Translations under genes and position numbers: made by a program
Notes under the pieces: model-generated
The model's database searches: none
The model's input: only the letters and a program-made list of their open reading frames with translations
What the model was told of the DNA's origin: nothing
Assembly: GCA_039797705.1 (NCBI GenBank)
Contig: JBDKHK010000152.1
Location: forward strand, 4,892-68,891
DNA length: 64,000 nucleotides
Direction of reading: 5' to 3'
From: Bacteroidota bacterium
Lineage (GTDB): Bacteria; Bacteroidota; Bacteroidia; Chitinophagales; JADIYW01
Shown: piece by piece, positions 1 to 14,190 of the stretch
Numbering within the stretch: position 1 is the first letter of the stretch
How the letters are laid out: each line of letters starts with the position of its first letter

Positions 1-1613
1 GATTTTTGCATGGCTGATTTCAATTCTTCTACCGATCCGATACATCGCTCTTCACTTGCATCTTCTGTTCTCCAAATTGGAAGCGGTGTTCCCCAATATC
101 TGGTGCGCGATAAATTCCAATCCACCAAATTTTCCAACCATTGTCCAAAACGGCCGGTTCCGGTGCTTTCCGGTTTCCAGTTAATTGTTTTGTTTAATTC
201 GACCATGCGTTCCTTAACGGCTGTTACTCGCACAAACCAAGAATCTAAAGGATAATAGATAATAGGTTTGTCGGTGCGCCAGCAATGCGGATACGAGTGT
301 TCGTATTTTTCAACCTTAAATGCTTTGTTTTCTTTCTTTAATTTTATACAAATATCTATATCAACTGAAACATAGTTTGGTTCGTTTTTATAGTCTTTCA
401 CATATCTACCTGAAAATTCTCCAACACCGTCTATAAATTTGCCTTCTCTGTCCACCAACGTCAATCCGCCAATTCCGTTTTCTGCTGCCACTTTCATGTC
501 ATCTGCACCAAAACTCGGCGCAATGTGCACAATACCTGTTCCATCGGAAGTAGTAACAAAATCACCAATGATTACTTTGAATGCATCACCTTCAATCAAT
601 TCTTTTTTATTGGCTTCAAAAGGCAGTAATTGCTCATATTGAATACCAGCTAAATCTTTTCCTTTGAAAGAAGTTAAAATTTGATAGGGTAAATTTTTTC
701 CATCATTTTGATAAGATGCAACGTCTTTATTTTCATTTTCTGCTTGAAAATATTTGCTTAATAAATCTTTTGCCAAAATAAGATTTACAGGAATATGTGT
801 GTAAGGATTAAATGTTTTTACTACAACATATTCAATATTTCCGCCCACTGCTAATGCTGTATTAGACGGCAAAGTCCAAGGGGTGGTTGTCCAAGCCAAG
901 AAATAAATATCTTCCTCCGTATTTAATGAATGGTGAATTTTGGAGGATGAATTTATCTTAAATTGCGCCACGGCGCTGGTGTCTTTTACATCTTTGTAAC
1001 AACCTGGTAAATTCAATTCGGCAGAACTCAAGCCGGTTCCTGCTGCGGGAGAATAAGGCTGTATTTTATAGCCTTTGTATAATAAATCTTTTTGGTAAAA
1101 TTCTTTCAAAATCCACCAAATGCTTTCGATGTAATTGTTGTCAAAAGTGATGTATGGATTTTCCAAGTCCACCCAATAACCCATCTTTTGGGTAATGCTG
1201 TCCCATACATCTTTGAACTTCATCACCTCTTGGCGGCATTTTTGATTATATTCTGCTACAGAAATTTTTATGCCAATATCTTTTTTTGTAATCCCAAGCA
1301 TTTTTTCTACTTGCAATTCTACTGGAAGACCGTGCGTATCCCAACCGCCTTTTCGCTTTACTTGGTATCCTTCAATGGTTTTAAACCTGCAAAAAATATC
1401 TTTTATCGTTCGCGCCAATACATGGTGTATTCCTGGCAAACCATTGGCGCTGGGTGGTCCTTCATAAAAAACAAAAGGCTTTCTACCTTCTCTGGTGGAA
1501 ATGCTTTTTTCAAAAATCTGCTCAGTTGTCCAAAATGCGGCAATTTCTTGCTCCATTTGTACTTGAGAAAGATGTTTTACCTCTCTATATTGTTTTGTAT
1601 TCTGCCCATCCAT
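1..1613 (-). CDS. ileS: Isoleucine--tRNA ligase, N-terminal ~537 codons (gene continues past the left edge)
   Basis: Absent from the ORF track because it is edge-truncated. Hand translation of the minus strand from ATG at 1613 gives MDGQNTKQYREVKHLSQVQMEQEIAAFWTTEQIFEKS...FVFYEGPPSANGLPGIHHVLARTIKDIFCRFKT...GGWDTHGLPVE (class I HIGH-type signature). Further on come TTTPWTLPSNTAL and YPHCWRTDKPIIYY. The + strand ORFs 1092..1661, 1270..1467 and 1454..1645 are antisense shadows of it. Confidence 0.9.
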   Translation of the reverse strand, partial: MDGQNTKQYREVKHLSQVQMEQEIAAFWTTEQIFEKSISTREGRKPFVFYEGPPSANGLPGIHHVLARTIKDIFCRFKTIEGYQVKRKGGWDTHGLPVELQVEKMLGITKKDIGIKISVAEYNQKCRQEVMKFKDVWDSITQKMGYWVDLENPYITFDNNYIESIWWILKEFYQKDLLYKGYKIQPYSPAAGTGLSSAELNLPGCYKDVKDTSAVAQFKINSSSKIHHSLNTEEDIYFLAWTTTPWTLPSNTALAVGGNIEYVVVKTFNPYTHIPVNLILAKDLLSKYFQAENENKDVASYQNDGKNLPYQILTSFKGKDLAGIQYEQLLPFEANKKELIEGDAFKVIIGDFVTTSDGTGIVHIAPSFGADDMKVAAENGIGGLTLVDREGKFIDGVGEFSGRYVKDYKNEPNYVSVDIDICIKLKKENKAFKVEKYEHSYPHCWRTDKPIIYYPLDSWFVRVTAVKERMVELNKTINWKPESTGTGRFGQWLENLVDWNLSRTRYWGTPLPIWRTEDASEERCIGSVEELKSAMQK

Positions 1614-1720
1614 CTGCTTCAAAAAAATTTCCGCAAAGATACTAAAAGCTATACTAAATAGTTGATTTTCTCCTACTTTTCATATAATTTGTATAGATTT
1701 GAAGACAATAAATTGTCCAG

Positions 1721-4042
1721 ATGCGTTCCAAAAACTTCTTTTTAATCTTTTCTATATTTTTTCTTTTCCTTTCAGAATTTTATGCGTTTTCTGTTTCAGC
1801 ACAAAATTTGCCCTTAGGAACTTGGACAGCACATTTGCCGCTTCAAAATGCATTATCAGTTTGCCAAAGTAAAGATTATGTATATGCAAGCTGTGGCAAC
1901 GGTGTGATTGGCGTAAATGTTGAAAATAAATTAATAGAAAAATACACCAAAGTCAGTGGGTTGGCAGAGGTTTTTGTAGCACAAGTTGGTTACGATACTG
2001 CTACTTCTACTTTAGTAATTGCATATACCAATTCCAATATTGACCTCATTCGGAATGGGAAAATCATGAATTTACCCTATCTAAAAAATGCTAACATAAT
2101 CGGCGATAAAGATATTTATCATATTTTTTGTGCAAATGGGATTGCTTATCTGGCAACTGGTTTTGGTATAATGAAAGTAAATTTAGAAAAGCAAGAAATA
2201 TCGGAAACAGCTATTTTTAATGATGGCGTTATGACGTATAAAGCAAATGCCGTTTGGGCTAATCAAGACACTATTTTTGCAGCAACTTCTAAAGGAATTG
2301 TCAGTGGCGTTATTAGTTCAACAATAAACTTATTGGATTTTAATAATTGGAAACAATACAACATTGGAATACCACCAACCAATGCCTCTGCTATTACACA
2401 ATATCAAGGGAAAATTATTACGGCTTTAGGTAATGTACTTTATCAATGGGATGGCATGAATTGGAGTACCTTTTTTACAGAAGCCAATTGGGTTACACGA
2501 CATTTGAACAATTCTAACGGACACTTATTAATAGCGCAACAGAAATTAGATGGCAGTGGAAATGTTATTGATAATCGTATTGGAAAATGGAATGGAGTTT
2601 CGTTTAATTTTTATGCTAATTCGGGTACGATTGCTTATCCATTACAAATACTTGAAGACCGTACTAATAATATTTGGTTTGCTGATTTATACAGAGGCTT
2701 GTCCTATCAAGAAGGTGGTAATTTTTATGCTATTTATCCGAATGCCCCTCCAGCCATTTCTTGCAAAGAGATGGCATTTTTAGACGGAACTCTTTGGGTG
2801 GCATCTTCTAATATTACAGATGGCTGGTCGCCCGCATTTAATAAAAACGGAATTTATTTTTGCAAGGATTATCATTGGGATAATTTAAGTATCTACAACA
2901 CCCCTTTGTTAGATTCTTTTTTTGACATTGCTGTTGTTCGCCCAATTCCTCCAGAGCAAAAAATTATTTTTGGTTCTCAAATGGGTATTTTAGAATACTC
3001 TGTGCCTGATAAAAATTTCAAGATTAATAAATTTCGTCCTGGCGCAGTAGATCCGAGCAAGAAGATTTTCAGAATTACGGGTGCAGATATCGACAATCAG
3101 GGAAATGTATGGATGTCGGATACTTACTCCAACACTCCTATTGTTTGCAGAAAAGCAGATGGAAATTACACCTATTTCAACGCTGGATTTCTGAATGATA
3201 AATTAGTAAAAGCAATTGTTGTGGATGATTACAACCAAATATGGGTGGCCAAAGCAGATGGACTAACAATGCTATATTATGGAAATGATATTGATAACAA
3301 ATCAGATGATGCATATTTTAATTTTACTACAGGAAGCGGAAACGGAAATTTGCCCTCTAATAATGTGATATGTCTTGTAAAAGATAAAGATGGCTACATT
3401 TGGTTGGGCACCGACCATGGCATTGCCCGTATTGCCTGTGCTGGTTATGTGACGCAAAATGCGTGTGAGGCCGAACAGATTTGCATTGACAGAAAAGATG
3501 GAAGTGGTTTTTGTGATAATTTATTAGAAGACGAAACTATCAATTGTATTTTGGTAGATAATGCTAATAGAAAATGGATTGGCACCAATAATGGTTTGTT
3601 TTTAATAAGTGCAGATGGACTGAATACTATTCATTATTTTAACGAAAATAACGCTCCGTTACTCTCTAATAATATTCGTTCTTTGGCGATTAATCCTGAC
3701 AATGGTGATTTATTTATTGGAACTGGAAAAGGAATTTGTAGCTACCGTGCAGAGGCAACCGTCACGAATGCAGAAACTGCAGATCCATTTGTTTATCCGA
3801 ATCCTGTACGCAATGATTACGATGGATTAATTGCATTTAAAGGCATTCCCAATAATTGTAATGTGAAAATTGTAGATGTGAGCGGAAACCTTGTTTATGA
3901 AACTACTGCCACTGGTGGACAGGCCACTTGGGATGGAAATTTAACAAACGGCATGAGGGCGGCTACCGGTGTCTATTTTGCTTTATGCAAAGGAAGCGGC
4001 AAGAAAGAAACTGCGAAACTCAAGTTTGTATTCATGCATTGA
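1721..4042 (+). CDS. Secreted beta-propeller (Reg_prop repeat) protein with T9SS C-terminal sorting domain, PorZ-like
   Basis: 773 aa with a signal peptide (MRSKNFFLIFSIFFLFLSEFYAFSVSAQ). Repeated propeller blades include NNVICLVKDKDGYIWLGTDHGIARI, INCILVDNANRKWIGTNNGLFLIS and NNIRSLAINPDNGDLFIGTGKGICSY. The last ~80 aa follow the T9SS type-A CTD pattern (VYPNPV..., VKIVDVSGNLVYE, GVYFALCK, KLKFVFMH). The PorZ assignment rests on size and architecture from memory, not a search. Confidence 0.7.
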   Translation: MRSKNFFLIFSIFFLFLSEFYAFSVSAQNLPLGTWTAHLPLQNALSVCQSKDYVYASCGNGVIGVNVENKLIEKYTKVSGLAEVFVAQVGYDTATSTLVIAYTNSNIDLIRNGKIMNLPYLKNANIIGDKDIYHIFCANGIAYLATGFGIMKVNLEKQEISETAIFNDGVMTYKANAVWANQDTIFAATSKGIVSGVISSTINLLDFNNWKQYNIGIPPTNASAITQYQGKIITALGNVLYQWDGMNWSTFFTEANWVTRHLNNSNGHLLIAQQKLDGSGNVIDNRIGKWNGVSFNFYANSGTIAYPLQILEDRTNNIWFADLYRGLSYQEGGNFYAIYPNAPPAISCKEMAFLDGTLWVASSNITDGWSPAFNKNGIYFCKDYHWDNLSIYNTPLLDSFFDIAVVRPIPPEQKIIFGSQMGILEYSVPDKNFKINKFRPGAVDPSKKIFRITGADIDNQGNVWMSDTYSNTPIVCRKADGNYTYFNAGFLNDKLVKAIVVDDYNQIWVAKADGLTMLYYGNDIDNKSDDAYFNFTTGSGNGNLPSNNVICLVKDKDGYIWLGTDHGIARIACAGYVTQNACEAEQICIDRKDGSGFCDNLLEDETINCILVDNANRKWIGTNNGLFLISADGLNTIHYFNENNAPLLSNNIRSLAINPDNGDLFIGTGKGICSYRAEATVTNAETADPFVYPNPVRNDYDGLIAFKGIPNNCNVKIVDVSGNLVYETTATGGQATWDGNLTNGMRAATGVYFALCKGSGKKETAKLKFVFMH

Positions 4043-4163
4043 AACACTATGAGAATTCACCCATACACAATAATTTGATTGCCGGCGGGAAATGCAGGAA
4101 ACAAAGGCATTTAAAGAAAATTTATCATAAAAAGCTTGTAAGAAAAAAGAATAAACAAGGGTG

Positions 4164-5105
4164 TTAGAAATTGGTCTTATCGCTAATAAAATATTGATTT
4201 CTATCGGAACCATTTCTGGCAATGAGTTCTCCTAAAAACCCTGCTACAAATAATTGAGCGCCCACGATAACCGTAAGAATACCTAAGTAGAAAACAGGGC
4301 GGTTGGTCATACCCACTACGCCGAAGAAAATTTTGGTAACTGCCAGATAAACGAGAATCAAAAAACCAAAGAAAAAGGACAATACCCCCAAAGTTCCGAA
4401 AAGATGCATGGGTCGTTTACCATATCTTCCTACAAATGTAATGCTCATCAAATCGAGAAACCCATTAATAAAACGTTCCAATCCAAATTTTGTGGTGCCA
4501 TATTTTCGTTCTCTGTGTTGCACAGGTTTTTCAGTAATTTTATCAAATCCTGCCCATTTGGCAATTACAGGAATATAGCGATGCATTTCTCCATATACTT
4601 CGATGCTTTTCACTACTTTTTGTTGATAGGCTTTTAATCCGCAATTAAAGTCGTGCAAGTTGTGAATGCCCGAAATAGCGCGTGTAGCGGCATTAAATAA
4701 TTTAGTAGGAATGGTTTTGGAAAGTGGGTCGTATCGTTTTTTCTTCCATCCGGAAACCAAATGATAACCGTCTTCTTTTATCATTTTATACAGTGCTGGG
4801 ATTTCATCGGGAGAATCTTGCAAGTCGGCATCCATCGTAATAACAACTTCTCCTTTTGATGCCTCAAAGCCTACTTGCAATGCAGCAGATTTTCCATAAT
4901 TCCGTTGGAATTGTATGCCTTTTATTTGCGGATTTTTTTGAGAAAAAGATTGAATCACTTCCCAGGAATTGTCTTTGCTTCCATCATCTACCGCAATAAT
5001 TTCATAAGAAAAATTATTTTCCATCATTACTTTTTCTATCCAAGCAAAAAGCTCTGGCAATGATTCTGCTTCATTAAGTAATGGTATGATTACGGAGATA
5101 TTCAA
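4164..5105 (-). CDS. Family 2 glycosyltransferase, polyprenyl-phosphate sugar transferase type (DPM1/ArnC/GtrB-like)
   Basis: 313 aa. Contains MNISVIIPLLNEAESL, DDGSKD and DADLQD (DXD) GT-A motifs plus two C-terminal TM helices. Confidence 0.85.
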   Translation of the reverse strand: MNISVIIPLLNEAESLPELFAWIEKVMMENNFSYEIIAVDDGSKDNSWEVIQSFSQKNPQIKGIQFQRNYGKSAALQVGFEASKGEVVITMDADLQDSPDEIPALYKMIKEDGYHLVSGWKKKRYDPLSKTIPTKLFNAATRAISGIHNLHDFNCGLKAYQQKVVKSIEVYGEMHRYIPVIAKWAGFDKITEKPVQHRERKYGTTKFGLERFINGFLDLMSITFVGRYGKRPMHLFGTLGVLSFFFGFLILVYLAVTKIFFGVVGMTNRPVFYLGILTVIVGAQLFVAGFLGELIARNGSDRNQYFISDKTNF

Positions 5106-5136
5106 CGATGATAATTGGTATAAATTAAAAACGAAA

Positions 5137-5568
5137 TTATTCTTTTTTCAGTATAAAAGCAAATACTAAAGAAACAAAAACACCAATAGCACTATAGAGC
5201 ATCAACACCATGGCAAAAGCACCTTTGGGCAATAATTGCGTTCCGGTGATAGAGGAAAAAATACTATAAAATGCGGTAACAAACATGGCTAATACCAAAC
5301 TTGCCATCCAACCACCTAAAAATCCTTGCATAAATTTTAATCGGTCGCCTTGTATTTTTCTTGAAAGGTATTGTGTTAAAAACACGGCAAATAAAATAGA
5401 AGTTACTTGTGATAACATTGCCTGCATTCTTCCATAAGGCATATTTTTAATGTGTGCCAAAGTGAAAAATCCGGCAAAGAATAAAGTAGATAATAATGTA
5501 GAAAACAAAATTATCATAATACCGCTCAAGGCGCCACGTGGGTTGCTTTCATTTGATTGATTGTCCAT
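5137..5568 (-). CDS. Small polytopic membrane protein (DUF4199-like)
   Basis: 143 aa with four hydrophobic helices. Its position between a dihydroorotase-like gene and a GT2 gene matches my recollection of DUF4199 genes in Bacteroidota. Its start overlaps the HepT stop (TAATG). Confidence 0.6.
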   Translation of the reverse strand: MDNQSNESNPRGALSGIMIILFSTLLSTLFFAGFFTLAHIKNMPYGRMQAMLSQVTSILFAVFLTQYLSRKIQGDRLKFMQGFLGGWMASLVLAMFVTAFYSIFSSITGTQLLPKGAFAMVLMLYSAIGVFVSLVFAFILKKE

Positions 5569-5972
5569 TATTTAGTCAGTATTAATTTAGAAAACGCTAA
5601 TAAATCATCTAATTCATTTTTAACAATAGAATGAAGAATGTCTAAGTCTAAGATGGAATAATCATGTACAGCAATATTTTGGAAACCTACCATTGCTTGT
5701 AATTTCTTATTCAGTTCATTGTTGATGATATTGTTGGCATATAAAACTTGAAATACATCTTTATTACTTTGTGGGATACCAAGTTTGTATGTTTTTATAT
5801 AGTGATTTCCCATGTCAATGCAAGCCTGACAAGCTCTTTCTATATTTAGAACAATAGCATCTTGCTTGGTAAAATTAGTATTGATAGTATTTTCAAACCC
5901 TACATACTCCTGTTGAACACGTTTTATGCAACGTTCGATAGTTTGAGCTTTACATACCAATACATCATCCAT
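5568..5972 (-). CDS. hepT: HepT-family HEPN toxin (DUF86) with degenerate Rx4H motif (QNIAVH)
   Basis: 134 aa. KQDAIVLNIERACQACIDMGNHYI and LQAMVGFQNIAVHDYSILDLDIL match the HepT/DUF86 pattern, and the gene sits immediately downstream of an MNT nucleotidyltransferase with a 1-nt overlap. The canonical Arg is replaced by Gln (codon CAA at 5679..5681). Confidence 0.8.
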   Translation of the reverse strand: MDDVLVCKAQTIERCIKRVQQEYVGFENTINTNFTKQDAIVLNIERACQACIDMGNHYIKTYKLGIPQSNKDVFQVLYANNIINNELNKKLQAMVGFQNIAVHDYSILDLDILHSIVKNELDDLLAFSKLILTK

Positions 5973-6382
5973 TAGTCTAGTACTTTTCCAGTTTTTTTTA
6001 TTTCATCGAAATAAGGTTTTCTCATTTCATTTAATTCGACATAGGCGCAAAATATCTGCGATTCATATCTATTGCAAAAGATAGTATCCTTACAAAAAAT
6101 ACGTTTGCCGGTTTGTATTATTTGAAACTGCAAAACGGTAGATACTTTATCCAATTGAACTAAATCTATATCTCTTTTTAAAGCAAACGATAATTGCGCA
6201 CTTAAATCAAATAATGCTTTTGAGTCTAATTTTTCATTTAATAAAAGTGCAATATCAATATCACTTTCCTTGTTAAAATATTCTGTCAATACACTTCCGT
6301 ACAAATAAATTGCTTTCAAGTCTCCATTTGCGGTTAGCAAGGAAATTATCTTAGCTTCTATATCTTCCAGATTTGTTGACAT
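5972..6382 (-). CDS. mntA: MntA-family minimal nucleotidyltransferase antitoxin
   Basis: 136 aa. Carries the GS-x(n)-DxD nucleotidyltransferase signature (IYLYGSVLTEYFNKESDIDIALLL) and DIDLVQLDKVSTVLQFQIIQTGKRIF, typical of MntA partners of HepT. Confidence 0.8.
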   Translation of the reverse strand: MSTNLEDIEAKIISLLTANGDLKAIYLYGSVLTEYFNKESDIDIALLLNEKLDSKALFDLSAQLSFALKRDIDLVQLDKVSTVLQFQIIQTGKRIFCKDTIFCNRYESQIFCAYVELNEMRKPYFDEIKKTGKVLD

Positions 6383-7641
6383 TATTTATTGATAATAAAT
6401 TTTCCTTTTGAAAAAACTGCTTTTACCTTTCCTTTCATGGTATGTCCAATGTAAGGGGTGTTTTTAGATTTTGACCGAATATCTTTTTCTGCAAAAACCC
6501 ATTCTTGATTAAAATCTAAAAAGACTAAAGATGCATTATTTTTTTGTTTGATAATTTTTGATGGATTGCTGGATAATAATTCAACTAATTTTTCTTTGGA
6601 AATAATAGTTTCTAATTTTTGATTTAATAAACCAAAGGCAGTTTCTAATCCAATGATTCCAAAATTTGCCACTTCAAATTCTACATTTTTTTCATCTATA
6701 TTTAAAGGAGTATGTTGCGTAGAAATACAATCTATTGTTCCATCTTTCAATCCTTCTATTAAAGTATCTTGGTCGGTCAACGTTCTTAATGGAGGAAACA
6801 CTTTATAATTGGAATCGAATGTTTTCAATTTGCTTTCATCGCTGATGAGGTGGTGCACAAACACAGAAGCCGTTATTTGCAAACCGTCTGCTTTGGCTTT
6901 GCGTATTAATGCCACACTTTCTTTGGTAGAGATTCCAACAAGATGCAGATTACCGCCTGTGTATCTTAAAATTTCTATGTCACGTTGCACGGTGGCGTAT
7001 TCCGACAGATTGGTAATACCTTTCATGCCCATTCTTACCGAAACTTCGCTTTCATTTACTTGTCCGTCGCCTACCAAGGTTTTATCAAAAGGCAGGGTGA
7101 TAATTAAACCCTTGAATGGTTGTACATATTGCAAGGCACGTAAAAATACGCCGCTGTCTTTTATACTATGCGGAATATCAGAAAAAGCTATTGCTCCTGC
7201 ATGATGCATATCTTGCATTTCTGTCGGAGTTTTGCCGTCAAAATTTTCTGTAACAGCACCGATAGGTAAAATAGTTACGGCGGTATTTTTTGAATTATTC
7301 AGGATATATTCTACTTGCGCTTTTGTCTGCGTCATCGGGTGATTATCGGCAGTAGCACAAATAGTGGTAAAACCGCCTGCAATAGCAGCATTTGCCACCG
7401 AATTTATATCTTCTCTATATTCAAATCCGGGGTCGTTGATATTGACATATAAGTCACAAAATCCAGGCGAAACATACGTTCCGTTATAATCTAATTCTTC
7501 CGTATTGGCAGGTATTTGCTGTATTTTTTCTTCTATGGAAAATATTCCATTTGCAATTAAAACACTTACTTTTTTCCCATGCCATTTGGAAGTGGGGTCT
7601 AAGACCGTTGTATTTTTTATGAGGTAGTTGGTCATTTCCAA
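6382..7641 (-). CDS. Dihydroorotase-like amidohydrolase-fold protein, probably non-catalytic
   Basis: 419 aa, collinear with class I dihydroorotases (VSPGFCDL..., AGGFTTICA, ISTKESVALIRKAKADGLQITASV, VHHL). The HxH motif is YVN (7441..7449), FSDDG is FSDIP, HICHVST is HLVGIST, and ATDHAPH is STQHTPL (Q at 6715..6717). Confidence 0.8.
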   Translation of the reverse strand: MEMTNYLIKNTTVLDPTSKWHGKKVSVLIANGIFSIEEKIQQIPANTEELDYNGTYVSPGFCDLYVNINDPGFEYREDINSVANAAIAGGFTTICATADNHPMTQTKAQVEYILNNSKNTAVTILPIGAVTENFDGKTPTEMQDMHHAGAIAFSDIPHSIKDSGVFLRALQYVQPFKGLIITLPFDKTLVGDGQVNESEVSVRMGMKGITNLSEYATVQRDIEILRYTGGNLHLVGISTKESVALIRKAKADGLQITASVFVHHLISDESKLKTFDSNYKVFPPLRTLTDQDTLIEGLKDGTIDCISTQHTPLNIDEKNVEFEVANFGIIGLETAFGLLNQKLETIISKEKLVELLSSNPSKIIKQKNNASLVFLDFNQEWVFAEKDIRSKSKNTPYIGHTMKGKVKAVFSKGKFIINK

Positions 7642-9653
7642 AATCTTATCAATAAAACTTCAGCCAGTAAAAATAGCAAAGACAAAATTACGCAAAGTTT
7701 CCATAATAAAACGCCTTCTTTTAGTTGTTTTATGGCTGCAGATAGGTTTACATTCGTATTATCTAGGATAATTTGATTTTTTTGATTAAATAATTTCTTT
7801 AAATCTTCTTTAGTTGCAAATTTTAATTGAGATTCTGTTCTGTCAAAATTAAAGGCAACTATTCCTGCAGATTTATTTTGCGCCATAATTGTGTAAAATC
7901 CATCCACTGGCAAAGTGGTGTTTACTCGCAATAAAACTGTATTTCCTATTGTACGATTTTCGGGAATAAATTCATTTTTTCCATTGGAAAGTTTATATAC
8001 ATTTTCGCCTATAGTATTTCCGCCCTCCAATTCTATCAAATTATCTTTGCCAATCGTACAATATAAAGGTTGATTATTCTTTTTATAAACTGCCATATTA
8101 TAGACCATTGGAGCATAAAGTGCTTTGGCTTGAAGGTCAGAAAAATCTACATTAAGTGGCACTGCTTGTAAATAAATATATCCTTTCCCTACATCAAATT
8201 TTGCAATTAGAGGAGCGCCTATATTGGTAGATAATATTTCTCTGACATTCGTATTGCTATTGGATAATATTGGGTAATATTTTTTAATTTTTGGTGTTTC
8301 TACATTTTTGGGAAGATGTTCAAATACTCCTTTAAAAACATTTTCATTCAAATTGATATTCGTTACTTCGCCTTGTTTTACTTGTATTGTAGCATAAGTT
8401 CCTGCATTATTATTGGACAAAAAAGAATTATAAGAATTTATGTTTGCATTAGCAGAAGGGATAATGTAAATATTTCCTCCTTGATTAATATACTCTTTTA
8501 AAGAAGCTGCCAAACCGGAACTAATTTCTTGTAATTGGTTTAAAACAATCAACGAATATTTCTTGAAAGAAGAATAATCTAATTGCCCTTTATTGGATTT
8601 ATCTAAAATGAAATAGGTGTCGTTTGCAAAAATTGATTGTATATTATTGGGTGTTTCATTTTCTTCAATAGATAATATTTTTTCCTGATTCGACACATTG
8701 AAAGCAAAATAAAAATGGTCGTCAAACGTAATCGGATAATCGTTAAAAGAAATTTCTCCACGCTGCCAGCCGGATTGTAAGGTGGAAAAATTAAATGTGT
8801 CGATAATACTGCTGGATGCTGGAATTGTTACATCATCAATAGCTTTAATGGCATCATTTATTTTTACAGAGACACGTATTTTATCTGCCTGAGTAGTGCC
8901 CGAATTATTAATTCTTACCATCAATTTATTGCCTGAATTTACAGCAAATACAGGCTGTTCAAACCAACAGGAATCTACAAATAGATTTTTTTCGGGAGCA
9001 CCTTGTATGGGCAAAAAATATTCTGTAAAGGTGGTATCTGTTACCGTTGGTGTTAACGTATTTTTTTGAAAATCTGAAATAAAAAATCCAAGTTTATTAT
9101 TGGCTCCTATGGTTTGAAATAAAGTACTTTGTTTGGATGTAATATCTTTTACCGTTTTTACTACTGATGATAATTCAATTTTATCTACTGCGTCTAAAAA
9201 ATCTTGTGATTGCATCCATCGCTGATGTACACCGTCAAAATCATTGGTAAGTAGTGCAAATTTATCACCGCTTGTAAATGCATTTGCAATTTCTTTTGCT
9301 TTTGTTTTTGCCATAGAAAGTGCTGCTTCGCCTCCACTTTTTAATCCCATAGAATAGGAATTATCAATATACACAGCTATTGCCGAAGTACCTTTGTTTA
9401 ATTTATTTTTATTACCGCCAATAAATGGTTGAACAAATGCCATTATTAAAAAGAATAGTGCTAAAAGACGAGTGACTAGAATTAGTCTTTTTTTGAGTTT
9501 CTCAATAGTGGATTTTTCTTCTTGTACTTGTTTTAAAAATCGAATATCGGAGAAGTAAATTTTTTTAAAACGACGGAAATAAAATAGATGAATAATGACA
9601 GGAATTGCCAGCGTAAATAATACTAATAAAAACCACGGGAATACAAGGCTCAT
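7632..9653 (-). CDS. BatA-like membrane protein with N-terminal double-TM anchor and vWA/MIDAS domain
   Basis: The ORF track gives 7632..9680. I prefer the Met at 9653 (MSLVFPWFLLVLFTLAIPVIIHLFYFRRFK = BatA-type N-terminal double-TM domain). It has a MIDAS DxSxS motif (YIDNSYSM) and a C-terminal TM helix. It overlaps the next gene by 10 nt. Confidence 0.75.
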   Translation of the reverse strand: MSLVFPWFLLVLFTLAIPVIIHLFYFRRFKKIYFSDIRFLKQVQEEKSTIEKLKKRLILVTRLLALFFLIMAFVQPFIGGNKNKLNKGTSAIAVYIDNSYSMGLKSGGEAALSMAKTKAKEIANAFTSGDKFALLTNDFDGVHQRWMQSQDFLDAVDKIELSSVVKTVKDITSKQSTLFQTIGANNKLGFFISDFQKNTLTPTVTDTTFTEYFLPIQGAPEKNLFVDSCWFEQPVFAVNSGNKLMVRINNSGTTQADKIRVSVKINDAIKAIDDVTIPASSSIIDTFNFSTLQSGWQRGEISFNDYPITFDDHFYFAFNVSNQEKILSIEENETPNNIQSIFANDTYFILDKSNKGQLDYSSFKKYSLIVLNQLQEISSGLAASLKEYINQGGNIYIIPSANANINSYNSFLSNNNAGTYATIQVKQGEVTNINLNENVFKGVFEHLPKNVETPKIKKYYPILSNSNTNVREILSTNIGAPLIAKFDVGKGYIYLQAVPLNVDFSDLQAKALYAPMVYNMAVYKKNNQPLYCTIGKDNLIELEGGNTIGENVYKLSNGKNEFIPENRTIGNTVLLRVNTTLPVDGFYTIMAQNKSAGIVAFNFDRTESQLKFATKEDLKKLFNQKNQIILDNTNVNLSAAIKQLKEGVLLWKLCVILSLLFLLAEVLLIRFWK

Positions 9654-9744
9654 CTTATGGGTAAAGATACATATTTGCAATAAGTTATTCGTTAATAGTT
9701 AACAGTTTTTAACCGAAAGGGAAATATACAATACTTAATTTATA

Positions 9745-9779
9745 AAAAAATCCGTTCGCTATGGAACGGATTTTTTTTA
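9745..9779 (-). terminator. Rho-independent terminator downstream of gyrB
   Basis: The stem tccgttc (9751-9757) pairs with gaacgga (9764-9770). It is flanked by an A-run on the left and a T-run on the right, so a U-tract follows the hairpin on the minus strand (and on the plus strand too). Confidence 0.7.
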
Positions 9780-9798
9780 TTTATAATTTTGCATTTTC

Positions 9799-11793
<1,995 letters not shown>

Positions 11794-11838
11794 TTAATAA
11801 GATTTTGTTGTTATTTTTAATAGAAAAAATTAACCTTA

Positions 11839-11846
11839 CAAAGATA
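11839..11846 (-). promoter_or_regulatory. Candidate Bacteroidota -7 promoter box (TAtcTTTG) upstream of gyrB
   Basis: Forward caaagata reads tatctttg on the minus strand, an exact match to TAnnTTTG, ~70 nt upstream of the gyrB ATG. No good -33 TTTG lies at proper spacing, and the motif is expected fairly often by chance in AT-rich DNA. Confidence 0.25.
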
Positions 11847-11961
11847 TAAAAATGCTATGTGAAAACAGGAAAAACGCAAGCTTGTTTATCCACATTTTAC
11901 GTTAATAAAACATAATATAAAGAGTTAATAAATCTCTCAAAAGTATTTGATTTTTAATACT

Positions 11962-13272
11962 TTACAATCGTACAATGTCTGCACCTAAATCTTGCAGTCG
12001 TTTATCAATATATTGATAACCTCTATCTATTTGGTGGATATTGGAAATGGTGCTTTTCCCTTCTGCAGAAAGTGCGGCAATTAACAATGCCACTCCTGCT
12101 CTAATATCGGGTGAACTCATATTGATACCTCGCAAATTATATTCGCGATTAATACCTATAACCGTGGCTCGATGAGGGTCGCACAAAATAATTTTTGCTC
12201 CCATATCAATTAATTTATCTACAAAAAACAAGCGACTCTCAAACATTTTTTGATGAATCAGTACGCTACCACTTGCTTGTGTGGCAGTAACCAGCATGAT
12301 ACTTAATAAATCTGGTGTAAACAAGGGCCAAGGGCCGTCTGAGATGGTTAGAATAGAACCATCGATGAATGTTTTAATTTCATATTTCTCTTGTGCTGGA
12401 ATATGAATATCGTCTCCAATTAATTCTAATTGAATCCCTAATTTTTTAAAAAAAGTAGGGATAAGTCCCAACATATCCAAACGCACATCTTTGATAATGA
12501 TATCCGATTTTGTCATAGCTGCTAATCCAATAAAACTGCCAATCTCAATCATATCGGGCAATAAACGATGAGTAGTGCCTCCGAGTTTTTTTACCCCTTC
12601 AATTTTCAATAAATTAGAACCAATTCCTGAAATTTTTGCACCCATTCGGTTGAGCATATCGCACAGTTGCTGCAAGTAAGGCTCGCAGGCGGCATTAAAA
12701 ATAGTGGTTTCGCCTTCTGCTAAAACTGCTGCCATTACAATGTTTGCTGTTCCTGTTACGGATGGCTCTTCTAATAAAATTGATTTGCCAATAAGTTTTT
12801 TTGTAGTAAGGGAATAGAATGATTTTTCGATGTCAAAATGAAAGGAAGCACCTAATTCTACAAAACCAAGAAAATGTGTATCCAAACGCCGACGTCCTAT
12901 TTTGTCGCCACCTGGTGTAGGCAAATAGGCTTTGTGAAAGCGGGCTAAAAGTGGCCCTAAAATCATTACAGAACCCCGCAAATTGCCTGCACGTTTTTTA
13001 AAATTTTCTGTCAATAGAATATCTGGATCTACCGCATTTGCATTGAAGGTATAAGTATCGTAATTTTGTTTTGTCACTTTTACACCCATTTCTGCAAGCA
13101 ACTCTATCAATACATTTACATCTAATATATTGGGAATATTAGAGATAGTAATATCTTCATCCGATAGCAACACGGCAGAAAGTATTTGCAGTGCTTCGTT
13201 TTTAGCCCCTTGCGGAGTGATAGTTCCTTTGAGCGGTTTTCCGCCTATTACTTCAAAAGCATCTAAACTCAT
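11962..13272 (-). CDS. murA: UDP-N-acetylglucosamine 1-carboxyvinyltransferase (Asp at the Cys115-equivalent position)
   Basis: 436 aa. Starts MSLDAFEVIGGKPLKGTITPQGAKNEALQILSA. The active-site loop is LPTPGGDKIGRRRLDTH, and the C-terminus is IDRGYQYIDKRLQDLGADI. Confidence 0.95.
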   Translation of the reverse strand: MSLDAFEVIGGKPLKGTITPQGAKNEALQILSAVLLSDEDITISNIPNILDVNVLIELLAEMGVKVTKQNYDTYTFNANAVDPDILLTENFKKRAGNLRGSVMILGPLLARFHKAYLPTPGGDKIGRRRLDTHFLGFVELGASFHFDIEKSFYSLTTKKLIGKSILLEEPSVTGTANIVMAAVLAEGETTIFNAACEPYLQQLCDMLNRMGAKISGIGSNLLKIEGVKKLGGTTHRLLPDMIEIGSFIGLAAMTKSDIIIKDVRLDMLGLIPTFFKKLGIQLELIGDDIHIPAQEKYEIKTFIDGSILTISDGPWPLFTPDLLSIMLVTATQASGSVLIHQKMFESRLFFVDKLIDMGAKIILCDPHRATVIGINREYNLRGINMSSPDIRAGVALLIAALSAEGKSTISNIHQIDRGYQYIDKRLQDLGADIVRL

Positions 13273-13283
13273 GATGTATTTTA

Positions 13284-13961
13284 TTATTTATAACGATTTC
13301 TGTTATTGTTATTATTTGGAAAATTATTACGACTGCGATTATTCTTGTTAAATTTATTTTTATTTCGGTTGTTATTGTTGTTATTCTGAGAGAATCTTCG
13401 CTGTTGTTTTTGTTGATTTCTTGTCATGTTTTCAATATTCATCTCTTCACTTATTTCTAACTCACCGCCTGATATTGATTTCATATCTTCTTTTATCAGC
13501 TCATTGCTAACTTCTTCATTGCTCCAGTTTTTATAGGCTAATTTCATAAAATTGCCAATAATTTCTGTAAAGGCTTCTTTCTTACCTTCATCCGTCATTC
13601 CTATTGCTTTCTTCACTAAAGATTCTACATTTCTACCATAATGTTTTAGCTTGATGCGCTTTTGTGGATAAGGTAAAAAAGAAGGTTTTATTCTTGCAGT
13701 AGCTTCTGTAGGAATTGGATAAGGTGAATCTACGTCCAATTCGAACTTAGAAATAATAAATAGATGATCCCATAATTTTTGCTTGTAATCTGCAGTACTT
13801 CGCAATTGAGGGTTTAAGATTCCCATTAATTGAATAATGCTTTCTGCCGCTTTTTGTCGTTCTTTTCTATCTTCAATATTAATAGCATAATCTACCATTT
13901 TTTGTACATGCCGACCGTATTCGCGCATTTCTATACTATTTCTATCAGTGTTATAATTCAT
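13284..13961 (-). CDS. DUF4290-like protein with Asn/Arg/Lys-rich C-terminal tail
   Basis: 225 aa. It lies directly upstream of murA, as I recall for DUF4290 genes in Bacteroidota. The tail reads QQKQQRRFSQNNNNNNRNKNKFNKNNRSRNNFPNNNNNRNRYK. Confidence 0.6.
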   Translation of the reverse strand: MNYNTDRNSIEMREYGRHVQKMVDYAINIEDRKERQKAAESIIQLMGILNPQLRSTADYKQKLWDHLFIISKFELDVDSPYPIPTEATARIKPSFLPYPQKRIKLKHYGRNVESLVKKAIGMTDEGKKEAFTEIIGNFMKLAYKNWSNEEVSNELIKEDMKSISGGELEISEEMNIENMTRNQQKQQRRFSQNNNNNNRNKNKFNKNNRSRNNFPNNNNNRNRYK

Positions 13962-14190
13962 ATTATATTTAAATTGTAATAATTAAAAAACTTTATTGTT
14001 TTAAAAATAAGAAAATTGGGAAAATTGAGAAAATAGCATGCGTCAATGAAGTTGAAAATATTGAGAACACACTTGCGAAGTCGGGACAAAAATAATAAAA
14101 TTAATTGATATGAAGTATTTAGAGGCTGTTTTTAATAGAAAATATTAAGAAAGGTTAATAAAAATCTGAGCGGTGTATTGTTGTTCTATG

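Follow-up and report, generated by a model that had tools for sequence, protein, structure and literature searches.

A derived Arg-to-Gln allele at the catalytic position of a long-resident HepT toxin homolog in a Chitinophagales lineage

The hepT gene of a type VII (HEPN/MNT) toxin-antitoxin pair from a Chitinophagales lineage encodes glutamine at the position where the catalytic arginine of the HEPN RNase motif is nearly always found. The glutamine codon is polymorphic within the species, is derived, and is carried by most of the sampled strains next to an intact antitoxin gene. We consider that this is probably, at a rough probability of 60%, a loss-of-function allele that arose recently in a long-resident toxin, and that the module is most likely at the first step of the erosion of a chromosomal toxin-antitoxin system. 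The pair lies in a stretch of 64,000 nucleotides, referred to below as the window. Coordinates are collected in Table 1.

Table 1. Features of the hepT locus, in coordinates of the window
Feature	Position	Strand	Basis or remark
BatA-domain protein, with which the conserved cluster begins	7632..9680	-	conserved order
DHOase-like gene, directly upstream of mntA	6382..7641	-	stop and mntA start share one base (TAATG)
mntA, 136-aa minimal nucleotidyltransferase antitoxin, intact	5972..6382	-	NF047752, PF18765, SO_3165 alignment
MntA catalytic motif G29-S30-x10-D41-I-D43	6254..6298	-	sequence and SO_3165 alignment
hepT, 134-aa HEPN-domain toxin homolog, Q98 allele	5568..5972	-	PF01934, NF047751, SO_3166 match
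hepT codon 7, TGT (Cys), found only in the window strain (P0271, on 6 contigs)	5952..5954	-	others TAT (Tyr)
hepT codon 98, CAA (Gln), catalytic-Arg position of Rx4H	5679..5681	-	alignment; middle base 5680 polymorphic
Synonymous SNP in Ala101 (GCT/GCA), linked to 5680, 10 bp away	5670	-	3.5-kb alignment
hepT codons 103-105, His-Asp-Tyr, catalytic His and acceptor Tyr retained	5658..5666	-	aligned to SO_3166 H102/D103/Y104
Membrane protein (weak DUF4199 match), directly downstream of hepT	5137..5568	-	start shares one base with the hepT stop (TAATG)
Family-2 glycosyltransferase, with which the conserved cluster ends	4164..5105	-	conserved order

A preliminary description of this DNA had assigned the 134-aa ORF to the DUF86/HepT toxins, and profile searches, alignment and predicted fold agree on this: judged by descent and by its modeled structure, the ORF is a HepT. 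Its translation carries ...MVGFQNIAVHDY... and matches Pfam PF01934 (HepT-like) with an E-value of 1.5e-27 and 96.2 bits over profile positions 1-119 of 120 (cut-off 23.5 bits). The match to NF047751, the NCBIfam equivalog 'type VII toxin-antitoxin system HepT family RNase toxin', reaches 147.4 bits over profile positions 1-120 of 120 (cut-off 60 bits), so that both full-length scores lie above the curated cut-offs. The PDB match found by phmmer is SO_3166 of Shewanella oneidensis (5yep_B, 6m6u_B; E ~1e-34, ~50% identity), to which the window protein aligns with one single-residue gap near residue 24 and without any gap in the motif segment. The AF2 model of the protein (pLDDT 92.1, pTM 0.86) has the SO_3166 chains (6m6u/5yep) as its best Foldseek matches, with TM scores of 0.92-0.95 and an rmsd of 1.0-1.5 Å, and its all-helical HEPN fold superposes on the solved HepT.

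The segment of the hepT product that bears the motif (...AMVGFQNIAVHDYSIL...) contains GFQNIAVHDY, in which Q98 faces R97, H103 faces H102 and Y105 faces Y104 of SO_3166. The reading of codon 98 as CAA on the minus strand is confirmed by the sequence, and the ungapped alignment bears out that His103 and Tyr105 are kept. The comparison with the reference protein needs one correction: the window segment is GFQNIAVHDY as first described, but SO_3166, given there as GFRNIAVHDY, reads GLRNIAVHDY, and GFRNIAVHDY is instead the consensus among the closest homologs of the window HepT; the difference has no bearing on the comparison. At the expected site, Q98-N-I-A-V-H103 does not conform to Rx4-6H, and the protein contains no second Rx4-6H, its arginines being at residues 14, 18 and 46 and its histidines at 57, 103 and 114. 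These positions, together with the SO_3166 alignment, dispose of the concern that the true motif might lie elsewhere in the protein. With no arginine in Rx4-6H and no alternative motif, we do not file the window allele as an active HEPN RNase toxin. The tyrosine of RX4HXY, which accepts AMP, is present as Y105.

In SO_3166, toxicity is completely abolished by R97G and by H102A, each on its own, and is not abolished by Y104A (PMC4621449); Y104 is the residue that MntA poly-adenylylates via its GSx10DxD motif (PMC7641770). By analogy with these mutants, the Q98 HepT would have lost most or all of its RNase activity and toxicity, while its fold, its interface with MntA and its acceptor tyrosine would be kept. 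Some residual activity is possible, since glutamine retains hydrogen-bonding capacity and the mutants assayed were to glycine and alanine.

The antitoxin had been described as looking intact, and this assessment stands. MntA scores 101.6 bits against NF047752 (cut-off 60) and matches PF18765 at 2e-23. Residues G29, S30, D41 and D43 of its GSx10DxD motif align with G27, S28, D39 and D41 of SO_3165, and D73 aligns with the Mg-binding D71, the third aspartate (for the roles of these residues in SO_3165, see PMC7641770). The gene lies upstream of hepT and ends at the hepT start codon. Among the PADLOC defense-system models, none matches HepT, and MntA matches the candidate family PDC-S09 only, a result that lends no support to a specific named defense system.

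Whether glutamine might be a common residue at this column is answered by the family alignment. In the alignment of database homologs, 116 of the 120 closest proteins have arginine; glutamine occurs only in P0001 (99% identical) and P0002 (98%), both nearly identical to the window protein, and the other non-Arg cases are one lysine and one misaligned fusion protein. In a second set of 150 proteins, each representing a cluster at 50% identity, 136 have arginine and one has glutamine. About 11 near-full-length representatives in this set depart from arginine (C, L, P, I, G, K, S and one Q), and in P0150, the sole other protein with glutamine, the acceptor tyrosine is replaced by phenylalanine. 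Across 256 homologs, arginine accounts for 241 of the aligned, ungapped positions (~95%), and glutamine is found in a single one of the 256 other homologs (~0.4%). Loss of the arginine as such recurs in a few per cent of HepT homologs, in agreement with the broader HEPN-M/DUF86 group, in which it is 'mostly conserved (83%)' (PMC3710099).

From the same alignments, R98Q is the only radical change specific to the lineage of the window. The other substitutions of this lineage all fall at variable columns, to residues that are common in the family, and they predate Q98 because the Arg allele found within the species has them too. We considered a co-adapted remodeling of the active site involving N107I and N109D, which adjoin the motif, and rejected it: the R98 allele has both changes, their columns are variable, and neither arose after Q98.

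The substitution segregates within the species. A 3.5-kb DNA alignment of the window with ten contigs of the Gln type and three of the Arg type, all at least 99.2% identical, shows A at position 5680 (CAA, Gln) in 11 of the 14 haplotypes and G (CGA, Arg) in the other 3. The possibility of a polymorphism at this base, raised in the preliminary description, is thus realized at the population level, with otherwise identical CGA (Arg) alleles in the same species; these alleles also bear out that CAA is one transition away from CGA. Allele counts were taken from the contig counts of protein clusters; at 90% identity, the window protein belongs to a cluster of six members. Four of them encode Gln98, namely the reference allele P0001 (86 contigs) and, relative to it, the window's own allele P0271 (Y7C, 6 contigs), P0274 (E45G, C48W, D53G and Y58D, 1 contig) and P0275 (D123V, 1 contig). 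The two Arg98 members are P0272, which differs from P0001 by Q98R alone (2 contigs), and P0273 (Q98R, E86K and L87P, 1 contig). P0002, on one contig and in a separate cluster, has Gln98 too. Glutamine is therefore carried by ~95 contigs and arginine by 3, figures that are contig counts and not unbiased allele frequencies. An exact-DNA scan of metagenome_contigs for the A and G alleles returned one contig, L100 (= L005), which was already in the set. The Gln-allele contigs come from at least 10 independent samples and from four sources (JGI, ENA, Logan and NCBI assemblies), and the 3.5-kb alignment places the allele on several distinct flanking haplotypes; it is thus neither an error nor a single clone. 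Most sampled strains of the window's species carry Gln98.

The direction of the change can be read from the codons. Sister species encode Arg98 as AGA and the Arg alleles of the window's species as CGA, so that the path led from AGA to CGA (synonymous) and on to CAA. The CGA alleles are then ancestral intermediates, and glutamine is derived. Positions 5680 and 5670 occur in the combinations G-A, A-A and A-T, a linear path with no fourth gamete. The mntA gene is identical on the Arg haplotypes L097 and L098 and on the common Gln haplotypes. In the best-sampled sister species, Arg98 is invariant over ~127 contigs and 13 full-length variants. An ancestral-type R98 allele and a derived Q98 allele are thus found in one species together with an intact antitoxin, the configuration of an eroding module if the arginine is required as reported for SO_3166 (PMC4621449). 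Among ~98 contigs, we saw no nonsense or frameshift allele apart from the case of L099 described below, a near-absence that also fits continued function.

One haplotype may be damaged in another way. On contig L099 (SRR28201383), whose positions 1479..2292 correspond to window positions 6114 and 5713..5717, hepT retains R98 and carries E86K and L87P (window 5713..5717). The leucine at 87 shows at least 90% conservation across the family and stands at the start of the helix that bears the catalytic motif. The mntA gene of the same contig has a 1-nt deletion at window position 6114 (ATACAAACC to ATAC-AACC), which shifts the frame after about residue 90 and yields a product of 116 aa. If real, L099 would possibly represent an independent route to a disabled module within the same species; it is one Logan contig, and the frameshift could be an assembly error.

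The setting of the pair is old and conserved. All three junctions around mntA and hepT are one-base TAATG overlaps, which suggests that hepT is translationally coupled with both of its neighbors. Counts from a promoter and terminator scan, whose coverage does not extend to Bacteroidota promoter types, equal the shuffled expectation, and we therefore claim no internal promoter. The closest HepTs after P0001 and P0002, namely P0003-P0012 (74-84% identity), all have arginine at the catalytic column, as does P0013 (68% identity, from Chitinophagales MAGs). The contigs of these relatives share the order batA, DHOase-like gene, mntA, hepT, membrane-protein gene and GT2, with overlapping junctions of TAATG or TGATG, while the outer flanks differ (gyrB/porZ in the window, radical-SAM/ruvC in one relative and uvrA/DUF8431 in another). 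The same core order within different outer flanks indicates that the pair was already in the operon when these lineages diverged and that its inheritance has been vertical ever since. The remaining HepT homologs are at most 57% identical and belong to many phyla, and a scan of GTDB representatives, a set that lacks the window's own species, recovered the operon-embedded clade in two genomes only, L017 and L018.

The toxin gene is among the better conserved members of this cluster. Between species, amino-acid identity is 83% for hepT, 81% for the glycosyltransferase, 73% for the DHOase-like protein, 72% for BatA and 68% for MntA. The dN of hepT is among the lowest in the cluster, comparable to that of the glycosyltransferase, and its dN/dS, where calculable among sister species, is 0.03-0.06; because synonymous sites are saturated (dS >1 or undefined), only dN and these few ratios are usable. 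On these measures, hepT in this clade is under strong long-term purifying selection. Such conservation argues for a benefit to the host, and the loss of toxin function in most strains would therefore need either a relaxed need for it or a benefit from losing it. A relative-rate test with L014 as outgroup gave 14-18 unique hepT changes in the window's lineage against 2-3 (p 0.013 to 0.0004). We make no claim for the implied 5- to 9-fold acceleration, because it disappears with five unambiguous distant outgroups, with which the counts are symmetric (e.g. 8/6, 7/7), and because a quartet site-pattern count recovers no resolved topology but a star-like one.

We propose that a genuine type VII pair was inserted long ago between the DHOase-like and membrane-protein genes in a Chitinophagales lineage and was then passed on vertically within the conserved operon. 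In the window's species, a single G-to-A transition at 5680 (CGA to CAA) turned the catalytic arginine of the composite HEPN RNase site into glutamine, and the derived allele is now the one in most sampled strains. The Q98 HepT would still fold, dimerize and bind MntA, with Tyr105 open to adenylylation, and would lack most or all RNA cleavage and hence toxicity. Along this trajectory the toxin would be disarmed first, the antitoxin being intact as yet, and the youth of the allele would explain why the ORF is still whole. A missense change of this kind would disarm the toxin without polar effects on the putatively coupled membrane-protein and glycosyltransferase genes downstream, and the one-base overlaps with both neighbors offer a possible reason why missense and not truncation would be the tolerated route. 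Decay in two steps, with the toxin inactivated before the antitoxin is lost, has been described for chromosomal toxin-antitoxin systems (PMC13617665).

Of the three readings put forward at the outset, an attenuated toxin and a variant active site are possible, and a disarmed toxin kept with its antidote fits best, because R97G abolishes toxicity in the ~50% identical SO_3166 (PMC4621449). The same mutant, fully non-toxic, weighs against Q98 being a weakened allele that is still active, a low-activity or altered-specificity RNase in which glutamine would weakly position the scissile phosphate. Selection would then have favored a milder toxin, cheaper to keep in a constitutively expressed housekeeping operon. 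Such an allele would accord with the integrity of the ORF, His103, Asn99, Tyr105 and MntA in nearly all contigs, with the strong long-term purifying selection on hepT in the clade and with the spread of glutamine over several flanking haplotypes instead of a single recent clone; we regard it as unlikely, though the most credible of the alternatives, as glutamine in 1 of 256 other homologs is unexpected if the active site were workable. Less probable in our judgment is a non-catalytic role of HepT preserved by selection, such as RNA binding, a function as partner or substrate of MntA, or repression of the operon, for which R98Q would be neutral. It would account for a dN among the lowest in the cluster and for the embedding of the pair in a core operon whose TAATG overlaps suggest translational coupling, and there is precedent in motif-less HEPN domains, proposed to be non-catalytic, and in HEPN proteins acting as substrate-binding partners of MNTs (PMC3710099). 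Against it stands the strict conservation of Arg98 in every sister lineage, including the ~127 contigs of the best-sampled species, which implies that the catalytic site was under selection until very recently. Both of these alternatives retain some weight because hepT is more conserved than most of its neighbors and truncated alleles are nearly absent.

The low dN of hepT also invites the view, to which we give slightly less credence again, that HepT/MntA is a domesticated host function, with R98 and Q98 maintained as an on/off or high/low polymorphism (for instance under a trade-off between phage defense and self-harm) or with Q98 in a non-catalytic role as an RNA-binding protein or MntA partner. 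That the base at 5680 is a mistake of sequencing or assembly, or that Q98 is misplaced in the alignment, has a negligible probability: the identical codon recurs in ~95 contigs, which derive from at least 10 independent samples and from four sources of data, the motif segment aligns without gaps to a crystal-structure sequence at ~50% identity, and the protein has no other Rx4-6H.

The closest characterized relative of the window pair is the SO_3166/SO_3165 type VII system (PDB 5yep, 6m6u, 7bxo). There, too, mntA lies upstream of hepT; the HepTs are ~50% identical, with a predicted fold that superposes at TM 0.95, and the H-x-Y of RX4HXY, the GSx10DxD motif of MntA and its third aspartate are shared. 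The two differ in that SO_3166 has the catalytic R97 where the window has glutamine, and in that SO_3166/SO_3165 form a stand-alone two-gene operon whereas the window pair sits inside a six-gene housekeeping cluster with one-base overlaps. Residue 7 differs as well, being asparagine in SO_3166 and the wider HepT family, tyrosine in the window's clade and its other strains, and cysteine in the window; the asparagine of SO_3166 contacts the adenosine of AMP-PNP in the complex with MntA (PMC7641770). Engineered proteins that have lost the same Rx4H arginine are SO_3166 R97G (PMC4621449) and the dead mutant HEPN(R102A) of Aphanizomenon, another HepT, named in the titles of crystal structures 7ae6 and 7ae8. 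Those mutants carry glycine or alanine, whereas the change described here is natural, is to glutamine, segregates in a wild population and has a predicted effect on activity. HEPN folds without the full catalytic dyad are also found in MtlR, Swt1 and MNT-fused HEPN proteins (PMC3710099); these are old, family-wide losses with compensating features, in contrast to the change of one residue, within one species, in a HepT that is canonical in other respects.

What is new here is the within-species polymorphism at 5680. P0001 (Gln98) and P0272 (Arg98) form a natural isogenic pair in which neither the antitoxin nor the genomic setting differs, and this enables a clean test of whether Arg-to-Gln kills a HEPN RNase. 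The pair also allows one to ask whether MntA still adenylylates a dead toxin, and how a long-conserved module starts to erode when it is locked in an overlapping, apparently coupled operon. Since disarmed toxins beside intact antitoxins are known and the arginine is lost in a few per cent of HepT homologs, the window offers an instance of a known phenomenon, an otherwise routine example that indicates no new mechanism.

The chromosomal ccd system of E. coli O157 is an example of toxin-antitoxin erosion. In Photorhabdus, as presumably in the window, eroding modules show an intact antitoxin beside a toxin with an inactivating change (PMC13617665). The species of the window resembles them further in that ancestral and putatively disarmed alleles are both present, and L099 shows apparent damage to the antitoxin. 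It differs in that the dead toxins of the Photorhabdus survey are mostly truncated, with two point-mutation cases only (PMC13617665), whereas here a single missense change affects the catalytic residue of a module long conserved across species.

Several minor observations concern the rest of the cluster and the window. Over its full 64 kb, the window has neither a tRNA gene nor an Rfam family that reaches gathering score. GC content is ~30-40% over window positions 1..14000, and the toxin-antitoxin pair, at ~29-30%, is not distinct from batA. The start of the glycosyltransferase gene is ambiguous, as a TTG at 5105 gives 313 aa and most public calls use a downstream ATG that gives 287 aa. The membrane-protein gene has an in-frame insertion of 9 or 15 bp at ~5229 in 3 of the 14 haplotypes (L002, L003 and L010).

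Dihydroorotases carry a metal-binding D-x-H-x-H. At about residues 63-67, the DHOase-like protein has DLYVN in its place, and the same DLYVN is found in all four relatives (L011, L014, L016 and L017); this probably makes it a non-catalytic subunit of the PyrC' type and not an active dihydroorotase. In the sister genome L016, whose HepT has R98, a second toxin-antitoxin-like pair (1605..2245), made up of a 79-aa ORF and a 134-aa PIN-domain protein, sits between batA and the DHOase-like gene and ends 2 nt before the start of the latter. The gene junctions of this operon seem to be places where toxin-antitoxin modules accumulate.
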